The position numbers and the translations under genes are program-made. A stretch of 64,000 bases of DNA, from NCBI RefSeq assembly GCF_044704955.1, contig NC_091984.1, positions 104,532,001-104,596,000 of the forward strand, read 5' to 3'. This DNA is from Pristiophorus japonicus. Taxonomy: Eukaryota. Positions 1 to 30,194 of this stretch are shown one piece after another. The notes beneath the pieces were generated by a model. The model did no database searches and was not told where the DNA came from. It was given only the letters and a program-made list of their open reading frames with translations. The stretch's first letter is position 1. Each line of letters starts with the position of its first letter.

Positions 1-400
1 GAGCTACCCCACCTCCTTTCCCCCCTTGTCTATCTTTCCAAATTGTCAGATACCCCTGTATGTTTAATTCCCAGTCTTGGCCCCCCTGCAAACACGTTTC
101 TGTAATGGCCACCAAATCATAACCATTTGTAATGATTTGTGCCGTCAACTCATTTACTTTATTTCGAATGCTGCGTGCGTTTAGGTAGAGTGTTTTAATA
201 CTAGTTTTTAAACCATGATTTTTAGATTTGACCCCTCCTGCAGCCTTTATATTCATACATATTGTCGCTTCCTGTCACCTTGTGGTTTACACTTACCCCA
301 GTGCTACTCTGCTCTGTTGCCTCCTGCCTTTTGCATTCTTTCTTGGGGTCCTGTTATCTGAGTTCTCACCCACTCTAACTATAGCTCTAACCGCCTGTAG
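1..400 (-). mobile_element. CR1-type LINE fragment (start of ORF2 APE endonuclease), runs off the left edge
   Basis: Minus strand reads LYLNARSIRNKVNELTAQIITNGYDLVAITETCLQGGQDWELNIQGY, matching the CR1 endonuclease N-terminus also seen at 41720. Confidence 0.85.
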
Positions 401-663
401 CTCCCAGGAACAGCCCGGGGCAGCAGGTGTGTCAGCCAGAGTGCGGGGCAGGCAAGGATTGCGAGCTACCAACACCGGCAGCCCCAAGTTTTAACTCGGC
501 TTGGCAGCAGGGGAAAGAGGGCGAGCCAATACAAGAAGGGCCGGAACCAGGGCCAATGCACCCGGTCCAGCAGCAGTAGTTTGGCCCGCCTGATGCCAAT
601 GGGGCAGCAGTACCCCTCGAAAGCAACTTTGTCGTCCCCCACGACACCCAAAAACTGAGGGCT

Positions 664-1525
664 ATGATAGGCCACCTAAGTAAGCTCACCCAACAGGGGA
701 ATCCCTCGGTACACTTCCTGGAAGTGGAACACACAGGGGATATTAACGGGTGCAATGATTCGGAGCAGGCTAAGCTGTTGCTCTTCTCGCTTTACACCAA
801 GCTGTGCCATTCCCTCTCTGCAGACAGTAGAAAGGGGCGAAACACGTACGCTACGGTTAAGGAGGAGGTTCTAGAGGCCATGGGTATGAACGACGGGAGT
901 CCTTTCTCCCGGGTGGAGAAAACAGTGCAGCTCTATGGGGAGACTCCACAGGCTTTCGCCGACAGGTTGTGGCCGGTCTACGAAAGGGCCTGTGATGGGG
1001 TTCTTAACCAGGCCCACCTGAACCCTAACAAGCTGGCTCACCGGCTCCACAGCCTGGTGGCAAACAGCTTACCTGGAGTAAAGGCAAAAGCCGAGGTCTG
1101 GTTCGATCCAAGAGATCCCAGAACCACCGAGGAGACAGTGGTCAGACAGTTGACACTGGCTTACCGGAACGGTAGAGGGACAGAGGAGCCCTCCTCCTAA
1201 AGGGAGGGTTCATGAGATTAAACCCAGCCAAGGCAAGAGAGAGTGGCATCAGGAAGGTGGGAACCCTCCCCACAAAGGGGGCGAGTGTTTTGGGTGTGGG
1301 AAAAGTGGGCACTGGAGGAAGGACTGTGGGAAACCCTGGAAAGAGACTAAGGGAAAGGCCGCTCCAGCCCCAGCCCGTAAGGCCGGGGCAGGAACATCCG
1401 ACTCAAATGAGACACTCGTAGCCGCCCTACAGACACTTATAAACTGACAGGGAGCAGTAGCCATCTCAACCGGTCCAGTAGCTGGTATGGTAAAACCCTC
1501 TGCTCCAACCCACCCAAATGCATGA
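664..1525 (+). pseudogene. Retroelement gag remnant with zinc knuckle
   Basis: Capsid-like ORF, a frameshift near 1195, CX2CX4HX4C at 1286-1327, an internal TGA near 1445 and a terminal TGA at 1523-1525. Confidence 0.75.
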
Positions 1526-2215
1526 CTAGAGCCAGCGCAGCCTGTGTACCTGTGTTCCCTAGAGTACGATGCCTGGAAGAGACCGTGCGTTACGATGGAG
1601 GTGGAGAAAGTGAAAGGGACCTATCTGCTAGATACTGGTGCTTCCAGCACCCTTGTATATGCAGATAACCCAGCTACCTCACCTCTATCGAACAGGGTCC
1701 CGTACAGTCTAGTGAGGTTCACAGGTAATGAGCAAACTGGTTCGTTTTCCATCCCACTCACCATTCAGTTAAAATGGAAGTGTGTCCTGATGAAATGGGA
1801 GCAGAAGGGAAAAGGGATACTGGGGGCTGATTTTATCATTGGCCACCAGATCCTAGTGGATCTCAGGAACCACTGTCTATGGGGAGCCATAGTGACTGAC
1901 AGGGAAGGTGAGGTGGCGGTGATCCCAGAAAAAGGGGCCAAGGGAACATTGTGTACCGTGAAGCCAAAGGAGCGTTATGACTTGGAATTACTGGTCAGTA
2001 ACACCCCAGTGGAGTACCAGGCATATGTACGGGCACACCTTGCAGCATTCGCCACATACAAACATGACTGTGGTAGGGTAACGGGGATGGAAGTTAGTAT
2101 AGTAGGGGACCCCATGACCCGACCACAAAAGCAATATAACTTCCCCAGGGAGGCAGAGGCAGACCTGACAACGGCACAAGCAGCCTGCTTCCTCTACAGT
2201 GAAGAAATGGAATAG
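1526..2215 (+). pseudogene. Retroelement aspartic protease and truncated RT start
   Basis: LLDTGAS active site and GILGADF motif; in frame with the gag zinc-knuckle frame. Confidence 0.8.
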
Positions 2216-3318
2216 TGAAGGAAACTACCAGAACTCATCAGGAACTGACCGAGCACGAGGCCCACGAAACGGAAGGTTGTCAGCAACCAAACTGACAACC
2301 ACTCTACAATCTACTTCTGAATGACCCAACGGGGGAGAAATTACCAAAAGGGACTAACTAATACTATTCCTAACCAAAGAAAGTGGGTACTTACTCCATA
2401 CATCCAAAACGCAACTTAGCGCATCAACGGACGCACCCCAACCGAAGACTACGCAGTCCGAAGTCCTCTCCTCTGTCCGGGGTGCAGCTCGCCTAGAAGG
2501 CCAAGTGTAGCGAACCCCAAAACCGTGATTCACCGGCAACTGTCTAAAGGGATTGGTGAGCATAGTCCCTGAACCCTCAGAGCTGTAACTTAGTTAGTTA
2601 GGGGAATTGGGAGGGGGGAGGCTGGGATAACTTGTGTAAATGTATCTGCATTCTCCTCTTTACCCCATTTCGAGTTTAAGCTGTATTCTTTTCCCCACAG
2701 GCTGTAATTTGACATTTTATTCAATGTGTTGTACCCCTCAGTGTGTATTGGTCTGTGTGTGTTATTAAAGGTGTGCCTTTTACTACTTTTTAAACACAAT
2801 AAAGCCATACCTGCTTCCTATCTTGAAACCGATTGTCTGTCCAAGTCTGTCGCAGTGCCTTCATAATTCCAGTGTCGAGAACCAAGGGTGTGGGAGCGAT
2901 TCGGAACCGCTCATATAAGGTCAGAAGGGAAAGCTGACCCCCCTGCAAACCACCCCTTACAACACTAAAGAATCAATTAATCTCACTTTTGAGTCTGCAG
3001 TTGTGATTGAGTGCGATCTTTGTATAGTATTTCTTCAATGAACATAGCTACTATATGATAATCATTTTGAACGCTGTGCACTTTAGTCTATATAATAAGA
3101 TTTATTCTTAATTCCTGATTCAATTGTTTAAAAATCATTCTTTTTATGTAGATGCAGTATTTGTGATTTCAGTCTGCTATTTGAGATATTTTAAATCAAC
3201 AATATCTTCATTAAAGGAATAAAGAGTTACATTAAACAGAACAGAAATTAGATCAAGTGCTGAAAGGCTTTTGGACCATATAAAGAACAAAAGGAAAGCC
3301 TCCAAATAAGCAAACCGT

Positions 3319-3887
3319 ATGAGGGCCTTGGTGAGGCCTCACCTGGGATATTGTGTTCAGTTTTGGTCTCCTAATCTGAGGAAGGACGTTCTTGCTATGG
3401 AGGGAATGCAGTGAAGGTTCACCAGACTGATTCCAGGGATGGCTGGACTGACATATGAGGAGAGACTGGATCAACTGGGCCTTTATACACTGGAGTTTAG
3501 AAGGATGAGAGGGGATCTCAGAAACGTATAAGATTCTGACAGGACAGGACAGGACAGGTTAGATGCGGGAAGAATGTTCCCGATGTTGGGGAAGTCCAGA
3601 ACCAGGGGACACAGTCTTAGGATAAGGGGTAGGCCATTTAGGACTGAGATGAGGAGAAACTTCTTCACGCAGAGAGTTGTTAACCTGTGGATTTGTTGAT
3701 GCCAGTTCATTGGATATATTCAAGAGGGAGTTAGATGTGGCCCTTACGGCTAAAGGGATCAAGGGGTATGGAGAGAAAGCAGGAAAGGGGTACTGAGGTG
3801 AATGATCAGCCATGATCCTATTGAATGGCGGTGCAGGCTCGAAGGGCCAAATGGCCTACTCCTGCACGTATTTTCTATGTTTCTATG
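3319..3887 (+). mobile_element. CR1 LINE 3' fragment
   Basis: RT C-terminal region (LYTLEFRRMRGDL) plus 3'UTR ending in ttctatgt repeats; nearly identical to the 3' ends of the copies ending at 15764 and 44552. Confidence 0.92.
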
Positions 3888-4625
3888 AAATTAAAATGTA
3901 AATAATTAAGAAAACAGCATAGGAAACAGCTTCAGAAAATCAGTGCATTTGACAAAACCTGTACAGTTCGAAAAAGCAACAAAATCACAGCTAAAGTTAT
4001 TATGGTGGGGGGGGGGGGAAATCGAATGATTCTAACTTACTTATTTGAATTGATGCAGCTTTTTGCTGTGCCTGACAAGAGATCCAATTCCAGACTAAAT
4101 TGGTGAAATGCAACAGAGATATAGAATACTGTCTGAAATGGATACTAAAAGGCTTCTAATGTGACCTAGGTGAACAACTTAGGAAAAGCAGCTATATTTA
4201 TCACCATGCCACTGTTGCCGTCACGGCTGAGTACCCACCCCCTAAATTTTCCTTTAGCCACTGAAGTAAAAAAACTCTTATGCGATATGAAAGAAAAGTA
4301 TCACCAATTTTGCCCTGCAAATGTGTTGGCTGCTTTGACTAGCATTAATAATTGTGGAGCAACCATTGTCTCCAATATCCAACCCTCCCAGCTGGAAAAG
4401 TAAGACGAGTCAGAGGTCCTTGTTGGAGTTTCAAATATTGTTTTTTAAATCCTTAGCAGCAAAGTAACTGAATTCTAGTTAGAAAGTGTCAATACTTCAG
4501 ATATTGCTTTTCCAATTTCCAATATTAAGAACTGAAAATCGTGAAGCATTTAATATTCATAATCATGCTTTATTTGGCATTACCTTAATTCAGAGATATA
4601 GAATACGGTCAGTCACTGCAAGGAG

Positions 4626-4713
4626 AATAATTTTAGCTAAATTGTTTATGAAGCTTACAGCCAAAACCGGAGAAAGCTGTGGCCTGATGTTTTGAAATGT
4701 AGCTAAGATTATT
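4626..4713 (+). promoter_or_regulatory. Eukaryotic type I SECIS element, probably in the DIO1 3'UTR
   Basis: Helix I pairs 4626-4639 with 4700-4713 (14 bp, one G-U). ATGA core at 4648-4651 faces TGAT at 4685-4688. Helix II is GCTTACAGC/GCTGTGGCC. The apical loop carries AAAA (4663-4666). Layout resembles the human DIO1 SECIS as I recall it (TTGTTTATGA..CACAGCC.AAA..GGCTGTG..TGAT), and DIO1 neighbours HSPB11 tail-to-tail in human. Confidence 0.85.
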
Positions 4714-4747
4714 TAAATCAGTGGAATCGAGTTTTATATTCCGTGCT

Positions 4748-4753
4748 ATTAAA
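4748..4753 (+). terminator. Candidate polyA signal (ATTAAA) of the SECIS-containing transcript
   Basis: ATTAAA 35 nt after the SECIS, followed by a GU-rich tract (ggtgttttggatgttt, about 4770). Confidence 0.5.
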
Positions 4754-5008
4754 TAATTACTATTCCACAGGTGTTTTGGATGTTTCCATTGTATTACATT
4801 GAATAGACTATTTACCCTAAAGAGAATGGAATATTTTTACATTTTATCCCCCAAATATTTTCAAATATAAAACCTATCCAATCTGTTGCAATTTTGGGAT
4901 AAAAATATTTTCAATTCAAAACATTGTGATGCATCATTCAGATTTTGATCAAAAATACTTTCAGGAGTTACTAATGAAGACCGCGACAGTATTGCAAAAC
5001 AAAAATAA

Positions 5009-5014
5009 TTTATT
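5009..5014 (-). terminator. IFT25 polyA signal AATAAA
   Basis: tttatt on + strand, about 120 nt beyond the IFT25 stop. Confidence 0.65.
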
Positions 5015-5136
5015 CACAAAGATAGCAATTCAATAATTAATGATTTGTAACAAATACTGCAAAAATATTTACACTAGTAACATTGTTCAGCCTCAATGTT
5101 TCACATTTTAAATTCTGGTTTTGTAACAGTTGTGCT

Positions 5137-5247
5137 CTAGACTCGAGCATCTTCTGTACCTTCCACTGTCACCTTGTGTACCGACACAAAATGGTCAAAA
5201 CCAGATTTGATGACAAATCGTAGGTGTATAGCGCTGGTCCCATCCTG
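5137..5247 (-). CDS. HSPB11: IFT25/HSPB11 coding exon 5 (last)
   Basis: QDGTSAIHLRFVIKSGFDHFVSVHKVTVEGTEDARV*; CAG acceptor, phase 0. Confidence 0.93.
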   Translation of the reverse strand, partial: QDGTSAIHLRFVIKSGFDHFVSVHKVTVEGTEDARV

Positions 5248-8504: not shown

Positions 8505-8695
8505 GTCGGCCTCCCCGTTACCACAACAATCCGTCACTTCCGGCTCTTCACAAAAGCGCTCCCCTGTATGTCCCATTTGCGATTCCGGCCGCATGAGATG
8601 CCGCGAAGCGGGTGCGTTACTCAGTCGCTGCATTCCACACGTTATCGGGCAACCCTCGTCACTGTCCGGCCGGGTGGTCGCCTGAAAGTGGGCGG
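8505..8695. promoter_or_regulatory. CpG-rich bidirectional promoter of IFT25/LRRC42, including the probable non-coding LRRC42 exon 1
   Basis: Head-to-head genes; CpG-rich; ETS motif CACTTCCGG (8535-8543) abutting CGTCA; X-box GTTATCGGGCAAC (8641-8653); + strand donor GTAAGT at 8696. Confidence 0.75.
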
Positions 8696-8768
8696 GTAAG
8701 TGATGGACTGGCTCCGGACTGGGAGAGGAAATAGAAACGGACGGGCTCCGCTCCCGGGTCAGCCATCT

Positions 8769-9227
8769 GCCCCCCCTCACTCCACCCCTCCCCTCACTCC
8801 ACCTCCCCTCCCTCCCCTCACTCCACCCCCCCTCCCCTCCCCTCCCTCACTCCACCCCCCCCTCCCCTCCCCTCCCCTCANNNNNNNNNNNNNNNNNNNN
8901 NNNNNNNNNNNNNNNNNNNNNNNNNNNNNNNNNNNNNNNNNNNNNNNNNNNNNNNNNNNNNNNNNNNNNNNNNNNNNNNNNNNNNNNNNNNNNNNNNNNN
9001 NNNNNNNNNNNNNNNNNNNNNNNNNNNNNNNNNNNNNNNNNNNNNNNNNNNNNNNNNNNNNNNNNNNNNNNNNNNNNNNNCACTCCCCCCCCTCTCACCC
9101 TCACTCCCCCCCCCCTCACCCTCACTCCCCCCCCTCACCCTCACTCCCCCCCCTCTCACCCTCACTTCCCCCCCCTCTCACCCTCACTCCCCCCCCCTCT
9201 CACCCTCACTCCCCTCTCAACCCCCCT
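8769..9227. repeat. C-rich low-complexity tandem repeat flanking a 200-N assembly gap (8881-9080)
   Basis: Variants of (ctcaccctcactccccc)n on both sides of the N run. Confidence 0.9.
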
Positions 9228-9275
9228 TACATTTTTTTAAATTATATAAATTTTAATTTTTCAGATTGTCTTCCA

Positions 9276-9742
9276 ATGTCTTCATACACCAATACAAGTC
9301 CTGCGTTTGAATTTGGACCTATCTATGTGCGTGAACAGGGACAACTGCACCTGTTAAATGGTGCTTCAAACTTGAAGGCAAGCACTGGAAAACCCAAGTC
9401 ACTGCGACTGTTTCAAAAGAGTTTCACTGTTAAATTGTGTATCGAAGATGGAGACAAGCCAAACGCTTGCAGGACTGATCACATTGTCTTCACTTACACA
9501 AAGGAAGGGAATCTTCGCTATTCTCCCAAGTCACTTTTTGACGTGGTGCTTGGTTTTATAGCTGACAACATACAGCACGTTGACTCATTAATTGGCTTCC
9601 CAGAGCAGATTGCTGAAAAACTTTTCACTGCAGTAGAAGCAAGAAAGAAATTTATTGACCCCGGCACAAGTACCAAGGCTCTGTTTATATTCAGTGAGGC
9701 CTATGGAAGTCTTGTGCTCCAGTCCCTGTGTTTACGAGAAAG
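9276..9742 (+). CDS. LRRC42: LRRC42 first coding exon (leucine-rich repeat-containing protein 42)
   Basis: MSSYTNTSPAFEFGPIYVREQGQLH...FTYTKEGNLRYSPKSLF...SLIGFPEQIAEKLF; acceptor at 9263-9264, donor at 9743. Confidence 0.96.
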
Positions 9743-28215: not shown

Positions 28216-28928
28216 TATTTGTATTTGAGTTCTTCACCATAATTAACAATCCACTTAGGTCATTGTTGTCAGTTAGCTTCATAATCATGAAACTTCAGTG
28301 AAGATCCAGAGAAAATAATGCTAACTTAATTTTTCCCACATCTTAAATTCCTGATATCTTCATTGTTCATCTTTGTATCCTCTGAAGGGTGATAATTTTA
28401 TTTCTCTGATTAGTGAACAGAACCTACAACTCCAGATGGGATTGTCCAATGCTTTTTACAGGAAGAATACATCCCATTTGATTTATACTTTGCAGTCCAG
28501 TATCTTACCGTTTTCATAGAATCATAGAAATTTACGGTACAGGAGGCGGCCATTCGGCTCATCGTGTCTGCGTCTGTGCCTGCATCGTGTTTTGCTTCAG
28601 TTAAGCTGATGGTTTTTTTTTATTTGTCTAGTTATAAAGCCAGAACCCTTTCCTGATCAGCATTTAACAAATACTTTCTCTTCTACTTTGCTTCTATGCT
28701 AATTATTTAACACTGAACCACATTGAATTGCATTTGCTACCTGTTAGCCCACTTATCTAAAAGATATCAATGTTTCTGATCTGGTTGCATTGTTTCTCCT
28801 TATTTGCCTTATCTCTTTAGTGCCATTTTCAAACTGGGAGATGTTGCTTAGGATTCCCTTATCCAAGTCATTGCCATATTATAAATAGCAAGGCTCCCAA
28901 GACTGACCCCTGGGATACACCACTCATA

Positions 28929-30194
28929 GGGCCCAAGTTTCCACATGATTTGCGCCTGATTTTTAGGAGCAACTGGTTGAGAACGGACTATCTTAGAAAT
29001 CGCAATTCTCCACATTTTTTTTTCTGCAGTTCTAGTCAGGTAGAACAGTTCTACTTTGGAACAGAATTTTTTCTTCAAAAGGGGGCGTGTCCGGCCACTG
29101 ACGCCTGATTTCAAAGTTTCCACAGTGAAAACGTACTCCAAACTAAAGTAGAATGGAGCAAGTGAAGATTTTTGTAGAACTGAAAAAACCTGTTCTACAC
29201 ATTAAAAAATCAAGCGCAGGTTACAAATTAGGCGTCCAGAACGAGGTGGGGGGGGGGGGGGGGGAAGAGGGGAAGGGAACTCATTAAATTCTACAATAAA
29301 TCCTTATTTATACTTCTACAAATATTATACAAATAAATCCAACCTGAATAAACATTTATAAGCAAAGAAAAGATTAAATAAACCATCGTCCTACCTGTGT
29401 GAAAGTGCTTCAGGCACGGAGAATTCTGCAGTCAGCCTGAGGCGCCCGTTCTTCCCGCAGGAGGGGAGAGGAGGCGCCCGTTCTTTCCCGCGGGGGTAGT
29501 AGGAGGCGCCCGTTCTTCCCGTGGGGGGGGTAGGAGGCGCCCGTTCTGCCCGCGGGGGAGGGGGAGTGGAGAGGAGGCGCCCGTTCTTTCCCGTGGGGGG
29601 GGGGGGGTAGGAGGCGCCCGTTCTGCCCGCGGGGGAGGGGGAGGGGAGAGGAGGCGCCCGTTCTTTCCCGTGGGGGGGAGGCACCCGTTCTGCCCGCGAG
29701 GAGAGGAGAGGAGGCGCCCGTTCTGCCCGCGGGGGAGGGAGGGGAGAGGACGCACCCGTTTTTTCCCGTGGGGGGGGGGGAGGGGGAGGGGGAGGCACCC
29801 GTTCTTCCCGCGGGGGTGGAAGGAGACAGTGAGAAGGCTGCAGTGAGATGTGCTGTTGGCAATGTGCTTTTATTTTAAAAATTTTCAAAAATTAAACAGC
29901 TACAAAGAACTACAAAAATGGCCGAGTGCCAATGTTTTTTTCACACTGAGCATGCGCGAACGCTCCAACGCGCACGCGCAGCGTTGTCGGCAGGAAAAAA
30001 ACTAATTTAAATAGTACCCGCCCCCTCCCACTTACAAAATCGGCGCGAGTGTAGGCTCCGCCCCCCCGGGCGCCGCGCCAGGCAGACAAGGAACTGCAGA
30101 ACGCTCCAGAATCGCGAGGTTTTTTTTAAGGCGCGAAAAACGGGCGCCCAGCTCGGAGGGGCGCCTGTTTTTTATCGTGTGGAAACTTGGGCCC
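28929..30194. mobile_element. PIF/Harbinger-type non-autonomous DNA transposon
   Basis: Perfect 17-bp TIRs gggcccaagtttccaca / tgtggaaacttgggccc; 3-bp TSD ATA. Confidence 0.88.
29438..29820 (+). repeat. G-rich minisatellite of about 11 units inside the transposon
   Basis: Core ggaggcgcccgttct(t/g)cccg(c/t)gggg separated by variable G/A-rich linkers. Confidence 0.9.

Follow-up and report, generated by a model that had tools for sequence, protein, structure and literature searches.

The human DIO1 gene has a four-exon structure and shares synteny with HSPB11. In the available sections of PMC2761289, the SECIS core is described as binding SBP2 and, together with an AA motif, as directing the recoding of UGA from the 3'UTR of the same mRNA, and the human Dio1 element is listed as type 1. 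For mammals, the accessible part of PMC3316567 gives UGA-to-SECIS distances of 207–5,207 nt and a mean selenoprotein 3'UTR of 1,027 nt. A two-SECIS arrangement is called unique to SELENOP (Sepp1) in the portions available of PMC3316567 and PMC5133445. That gene carries many UGAs, its two elements lie 334 nt apart on average, and a poly(A) site between them gives rise to mRNA lacking the second.

The window examined here is a stretch of 64,000 nt from Pristiophorus japonicus (G000:C8:104,532,001–104,596,000, so that base 1 is C8:104,532,001), downstream of a predicted deiodinase gene on the same strand. Two SECIS-type hairpins follow the stop codon of this gene, with a poly(A) site between them that would give an mRNA without the second, as in SELENOP; unlike SELENOP, the gene has one UGA and its elements are 19.9 kb apart. 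It resembles other vertebrate DIO1 genes (Pfam PF00837) in its four coding exons, in a UGA placed within an SCS-U-PPF motif and in its convergent HSPB11-type neighbour, and differs from them in having two candidate SECIS elements, a 3' region enlarged by transposons and two retrocopies that preserve distinct 3' ends. The favoured reading, held at a probability of roughly 0.6, is that a DIO1 3'UTR with two SECIS elements was split by transposons, and that the gain of a poly(A) signal downstream of the near element would have left the distal hairpin stranded or limited to a minor long isoform.

The distal hairpin occupies window positions 4626–4713 on the plus strand and was characterised by pattern, fold and Rfam score. 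Helix I (4626–4639/4700–4713) is paired at 14 of 14 positions, 13 of them Watson–Crick and one G-U. The AUGA of the core (4648–4651) faces UGAU (4685–4688), and the quartet at 4649–4652/4685–4688 reads U.U, G.A, A.G and A-U, giving the non-Watson–Crick quartet with tandem G.A/A.G pairs that defines a SECIS. Helix II (4653–4661/4676–4684) is paired at eight of nine positions, with one C.C mismatch and two G-U pairs, and is closed by a 14-nt apical loop (4662–4675) starting CAAAA, in which AAAA (4663–4666), 11 nt past AUGA, supplies the unpaired AA(R) one helix above the core. The stem-loop-stem-loop form with helix I folds at -20.5 kcal/mol (core kept unpaired), and the hairpin is on the same strand as, and 3' of, a gene with an in-frame UGA. 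An ATTAAA (4748–4753), 35 nt behind it, and a GU tract (4770–4785) make up a candidate distal poly(A) site by sequence (4748–4785, plus strand); hairpin, ATTAAA and GU tract all appear intact. The folding z-score of 4626–4713 is -3.34, and one of 200 shuffled sequences was equally stable. The upper part alone (4645–4690) is unremarkable (z -0.52), which traces the stability to helix I. No second genomic copy of the distal region was found in a genome search that skipped very common words.

With type 1 elements (Rfam RF00031) the distal hairpin shares helix I, the internal loop, the tandem-G.A quartet, a nine-position helix II, the A run and a place 3' of a UGA gene. It departs from them in its low Rfam score, in not being the first SECIS after the stop codon, and in lying 20 kb from the UGA (20,362 nt unspliced) unless splicing intervenes, where the mammalian survey has a maximum of 5.2 kb. 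At gathering score, Rfam gave zero matches across the window; SECIS_1 (RF00031) was the best of seven weak matches in 4400–5000, at 17.8 bits (E 1.5), below the cut-off of 35. The near hairpin also fell below that cut-off, at 16.4 bits in an 86-nt search, and was not listed in a 601-nt search. Candidates from the same genome, themselves putative, scored 33.7 bits behind DIO3 and 19.9 bits behind DIO2, both again under 35, which suggests that the cut-off misses elements of this animal. The DIO3 candidate (L001:2525–2591) starts with GUGA instead of AUGA. The DIO2-type gene (L002:1501–2253, minus strand; G000:C4:302.49 Mb), with its candidate at L002:618–684, is a single uninterrupted frame covering profile positions 1–236; the only intronless selenoprotein genes named in the accessible part of PMC3316567 are Dio3 and SPS2b.

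A SECIS pattern, written after the hairpins had been seen, was scanned against 102 kb (38 kb upstream plus the window) and against shuffled strands in which dinucleotides were kept only approximately. At the loose setting there were three matches on the plus strand and one on the minus strand (shuffle mean 1.4 per strand). Strong plus-strand matches numbered two, both located between the DIO1 stop codon and the convergent gene. The class of the distal hairpin (helix II at least 8, helix I at least 10) was matched in 0 of 20 shuffled 102-kb strands, and that of the near hairpin once.

These figures bear on whether the distal hairpin ever belonged to a DIO1 mRNA. It might instead be an AT-rich inverted repeat that arose by chance and resembles a SECIS at its top, or part of the 3' end of the convergent gene, with DIO1 always having used the near hairpin only; the E value of 1.5 and the ordinary upper stem would suit such an origin. 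The shuffles argue against it, as does the coincidence, on the strand of DIO1, of the core with the length of helix II, the spacing of the AA and a poly(A) signal 35 nt further on, and the shortfall in Rfam score extends to the DIO2 and DIO3 candidates. The convergent gene (5009–5244, minus strand; last coding exon 5140–5244) has its only AATAAA/ATTAAA hexamer of 4600–5200 at 5009–5014, and the distal hairpin lies downstream of that hexamer. Altogether an origin outside DIO1 is judged improbable. The last exon of this neighbour matches PDB 1TVG, titled 'LOC51668 protein', which we take to be HSPB11, hence the name used here. Further right, window 8658–9742 is GC-rich, with a 200-N gap (8881–9080) amid short tandem repeats and a plus-strand exon-like stretch at about 9265–9742; it is probably a second gene, arranged head-to-head with the HSPB11-type gene.

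The first-pass annotation, made from the window alone, had described helix I, the AUGA/UGAU core, helix II, the AAAA loop, the ATTAAA and the GU tract, each of which was recovered here, and had expected a selenoprotein gene upstream on the plus strand. An intact DIO1 is found there. Its coding exons lie at C8:104,500,323–653, 104,508,317–460 (which holds the UGA), 104,514,388–587 and 104,516,592–657, all on the plus strand; three were located with a deiodinase profile and the fourth by a motif scan, and they were joined at GT-AG borders. The coding sequence of 741 nt is intact, its sole internal stop being the TGA at codon 124. The joint between exons 3 and 4 is present in contigs from three of the four sequencing runs aligned (X5, X8 and X17), the fourth being a DNA run. 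Exon 1 shows 74% identity to a protein from the basking shark that is named type I iodothyronine deiodinase, and the whole protein shows 56–66% identity to three shark proteins, two of which bear the name type I deiodinase, compared with 45% to DIO3 and 36% to DIO2 of its own genome (pairwise identities, no tree). Identities nearer to type I than to DIO2 or DIO3, and a UGA at the catalytic site, identify the predicted gene as shark DIO1. The stop codon (C8:104,516,657) is outside the window, 19,991 nt before the distal AUGA, and 15.3 kb separate the last coding exon from the first base of the window, in agreement with the earlier statement that 1–4625 holds no such exon; the separation of hairpin and coding sequence, put at 4.6 kb or more, is in fact 20 kb.

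The near hairpin (L009:2755–2832, plus strand; AUGA at C8:104,516,772), supported by pattern, fold and contigs, lies 115 nt past the stop codon and 486 nt past the UGA. Its quartet (U.U, G.A, A.G, U.U), helix II (7/9 paired) and AAA within a 14-nt loop agree with the structural definition of a SECIS, and helix I has 11 bp and extends further. The fold is stable (z -4.60), none of 200 shuffles being as stable. Two oddities are the pair of mismatches directly above the core and the AAA placed 13 nt past AUGA. Spliced contigs from X5, X8 and X17, as well as a retrocopy on C1, span exon 3 through the hairpin, which places it on the same RNA as the DIO1 coding sequence. An AATAAA and a cleavage site, the latter given by the end of a retrocopy on C7, follow at L009:2864–2888 (plus strand).

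Contigs of 4 of 20 listed runs were aligned to L009:2470–3035, namely X5 from the present organism, X8 and a DNA run from relative B, and X17 from relative C; at the places listed, the DNA run agrees with X8 letter for letter. Over the 78 nt of the near hairpin, B has three substitutions and C two, with no indel among the listed differences; the remaining 265 letters of the UTR carry 41 substitutions (p 0.006). The contrast is no longer significant when only the downstream UTR serves as reference (p 0.40 counting substitutions, 0.058 when indels are added), and all these counts assume that a further 15 substitutions and 5 indels lie beyond the last listed place. The core and AAA are unchanged in both relatives. 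B has a third mismatch in helix II without a compensating change, and no compensatory pair or covariation was seen in the hairpin across B and C. C/D-box snoRNAs are defined by a conserved box C and box D; the near hairpin draws weak snoRNA matches in Rfam, all far under cut-off, and the letter at L009:2771 disrupts its box-C-like word in B, in C and in the C1 copy; a snoRNA was rejected.

It has to be asked whether the distal hairpin could be the only true SECIS of DIO1, the near one being some other conserved kink-turn or stem, in which case the short mRNA could not insert selenocysteine and DIO1 would depend on a very long transcript or be impaired. The distal element has the better-formed helix II and the slightly higher score, and is presumably similar to the SECIS of human DIO1 in helix II and near the core; the snoRNA matches point in the same direction. 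A SECIS-less isoform is known for SELENOS, according to the sections available of PMC5133445. Against this stand the full set of defining features and the stable fold of the near hairpin, its unchanged core and AAA together with the broken box-C-like word in the relatives, and a DIO1 coding sequence that is intact and represented by spliced contigs. A DIO1 served by the distal element only is considered very unlikely. By the numbering used in PMC2761289, as read here, the distal hairpin would bear both marks of a weak element and the near one neither, from which the near element is predicted to be the more active.

The stop codon and the distal hairpin are separated by 19,968 nt, without any N run, of which 18,534 nt are transposon or retroviral and 1,434 nt are other sequence. 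The bulk is a stack of 17,966 nt, which begins 15.0 kb before the window (C8:104,516,996) and has its right end at 1–2961. It contains an inverted pair of LINEs, presumably of the CR1 family, broken minus-strand pieces of endogenous retrovirus encoding env, integrase, RNase H and zinc knuckle, an LTR element and nested LINEs. The retroviral pieces inside the DIO1 3' region cover L009:5387–10000 and L010:1–1796. The LTR element starts some 6.2 kb before the window, is split by a LINE into which a second LINE has inserted, and ends with its right LTR at 2167–2961 (plus strand, from comparison of the LTR pair); three of its ORFs examined against Pfam gave zero family matches, and it is inferred to be Gypsy-like. 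The two LTRs of this element differ at 18 of 794 sites (2.3%), and those of another pair at 7 of 250 (2.8%). The insertions therefore look young, and the intact state of the distal hairpin need not mean selection. One LTR is truncated at its junction with CR1, which points to a deletion. At L009 ~3150–3175, about 25 bp of the CR1 piece appear inverted relative to the C1 retrocopy (alignment by eye).

To the right of the stack lies a non-repeat stretch (2962–3321), then the 3' fragment of a CR1-type LINE (3322–3889, plus strand; 82–91% alike to its five best matches among the copies in 102 kb) and a second non-repeat stretch (3890–4625) leading up to the hairpin. Each non-repeat stretch, taken on the plus strand, has one genomic match only and is presumed to be old 3'UTR. 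The 1,434 nt of non-transposon sequence come near the mean length of a mammalian selenoprotein 3'UTR. On the favoured reading, the old DIO1 3'UTR would have contained both hairpins at a spacing of about 1.4 kb or a little more, and the LINE and LTR insertions would have pulled them away from each other. Upstream of the distal hairpin the plus strand now carries 10 AATAAA (the proximal one included) and 11 ATTAAA hexamers.

A genome search with exon 4 and the near UTR returned two other places. The copy on C7 (L014:1491–1724; G000:C7:77,463,464–667) is 204 nt long with 200 letters alike, spans the near hairpin and the AATAAA, and stops 18 nt later in an A run; it is flanked by 13-bp direct repeats, and its hairpin is intact. 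It is recognisable as a copy, truncated at its 5' end, of an mRNA whose poly(A) tail began past the near hairpin, and its end in an A run behind AATAAA indicates that a short DIO1 mRNA without the distal hairpin existed. Two adjacent A-to-G changes are present in the extended lower stem of its near hairpin. The first-pass annotation had called the distal hairpin the DIO1 SECIS, and the locus, the strand and the tail-to-tail arrangement with an HSPB11-type gene bear out the attribution to DIO1; the definite article does not survive, as a second SECIS-like hairpin is present. It had also held that a DIO1 mRNA ending earlier with a SECIS of its own would speak against its naming, and, as far as the sequence goes, the near hairpin and the C7 retrocopy point to exactly such an mRNA.

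The copy on C1 (L013/L003; G000:C1:275,180,619–275,183,602, minus strand) is a processed pseudogene in which exons 1–4 are joined and the TGA is retained, with a 1.2-kb insertion in the exon 3 part. This insertion (L013:1961–3130) has terminal inverted repeats, is in part 97% alike to window 28,918–29,416, and is inferred to be a young non-autonomous DNA element. The UTR of the C1 copy runs past the near site into the inverted CR1 pair and is then fused to the 3' end of another LINE, which suggests a template switch, as such a fusion would be expected to result from one; given this fusion, the copy sets a lower bound only on the length of its mRNA. Neither a target-site duplication nor a poly(A) tail was found within 23 kb. 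The C1 copy has AATATA where the gene has AATAAA. It differs from the gene at 13 places in exon 4 and UTR, and at 5 of these it agrees with B and C; it is therefore taken to represent an older state, while C7 shares the present one. No retrocopy including the distal region was found in the genome searches, which skipped very common words.

The CR1 parts of the C1 copy show dense A-to-G changes, affecting 40 of the 78 A in one piece and 10 of the 74 in the other, as against 2 of 195 A across the 5' and coding part, and at 38 of the 40 changed sites most other CR1 copies carry A. ADAR enzymes have a neighbour preference, few edited sites having a 5' G. A 5' G is rare at the changed sites as well (3/40 versus 10/35, p 0.03), and the changes fit an apparent ADAR editing of the folded CR1 pair before reverse transcription, fixed thereafter in DNA. 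The CR1 fragment at 3322–3889 was considered as the editing partner, which would have implied a transcript reaching near the distal hairpin, and was rejected as edited sites are enriched where the adjacent CR1 pairs (31/40 versus 17/36, p 0.009). As in the accessible accounts of ADAR hyper-editing of 3'UTR inverted repeats, the dense A-to-G changes are limited to an inverted LINE pair and have few 5' G; unlike editing seen in RNA reads, those of C1 are fixed in the genomic DNA of a processed pseudogene. No report of editing fixed in retrocopies was present among the best 20 of 244 literature matches. The simplest order of events would be CR1 insertion, read-through transcripts, gain of AATAAA and then the short mRNA; this order is built on two retrocopies and small counts, and the LTR insertions are not placed in it.

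Relatives B and C have neither the AATAAA nor the CR1 junction. Their records extend only 130–319 letters past L009:3000, and contig ends are not evidence of RNA ends. A search for the continuation of the B and C sequence (27 letters, with as many as 6 edits allowed) gave no match between the stop codon and the distal hairpin, so the old UTR cannot be rebuilt by mere removal of transposons; the sole match, at 54.8 kb of the window on the minus strand with 6 edits, was taken as chance. In the present organism, the spliced DIO1 contig of X5, from another sample, passes the near poly(A) site into CR1 without differences, which shows that read-through past this site exists today. No contig joining DIO1 to the distal hairpin was found in the four runs, aligned at L009:2470–3035 only; this, and the missing continuation of B and C, would also suit a distal hairpin that had never been part of DIO1 mRNA. 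The words of 3890–4800 (91 sampled) are contained in X5 at a share of 0.41, counted as unaligned words irrespective of strand, with DNA carry-over possible. Runs X6–X20, B and C included, contain shares of 0.09–0.15, likewise unaligned, and are left out of the argument. None of the 20 runs listed for these words is recorded as RNA, and 4 of the 20 may be source DNA.

Such read-through raises the possibility that both hairpins work and that the distal one still serves a long isoform made today in substantial amounts, whether 20 kb long and unspliced or with the stack removed as a 3'UTR intron, alternative polyadenylation then selecting one or two SECIS elements as in SELENOP. The intact distal hairpin, ATTAAA and GU tract agree with this, as does reading through the near site, both in the C1 retrocopy and in the spliced X5 contig, and the X5 word share adds a weak hint. 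Opposed to it are the 21 poly(A) hexamers and two LTR pairs that intervene, the entry of the X5 contig into CR1 unspliced, with no loose end leaving the UTR among those listed, and the retrocopies, none of which includes the distal region. A long isoform in substantial use is regarded as unlikely, if less so than the two alternatives considered above.

Under the favoured reading of a split two-SECIS 3'UTR, the canonical poly(A) signal downstream of the near hairpin would stem from a T-to-A change, that hairpin would now serve most DIO1, and the distal one would be stranded or carried by a rare long transcript. By the known mechanism, the sheared G.A core of either hairpin would bind SBP2, and the A-rich loop would enable UGA to be read as selenocysteine. 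A fuller version, in which a shark DIO1 with a single selenocysteine has two working SECIS elements, the young stack severed the distal one, a one-letter poly(A) gain switched the gene to the near one, and the two pseudogenes keep the mRNAs from before (read-through, ADAR hyper-edited) and after (short, polyadenylated), is put forward tentatively, at somewhat less than even odds. No report of a two-SECIS DIO1 or of a shark DIO1 3'UTR was found in a literature search that left most subscription journals outside its range, and the available part of a vertebrate selenoproteome preprint (10.1101/2025.05.29.656587) makes no mention of a two-SECIS DIO1.

If only one hairpin works, the finding reduces to an ordinary DIO1 SECIS. 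If both work, DIO1 in these sharks would become a second vertebrate gene carrying two SECIS elements, and, as it has a single UGA, the second element would not be explained by processive decoding of multiple selenocysteines. Annotation that keeps only the nearest or the best-scoring SECIS would miss one of the two elements. The retrocopies suggest that processed pseudogenes can place changes of 3' ends in order of time and can fix RNA editing in a genome. With both hairpins functional, the locus would represent a natural case of SECIS redundancy or turnover, in which a recoding signal survived an 18-kb transposon invasion.
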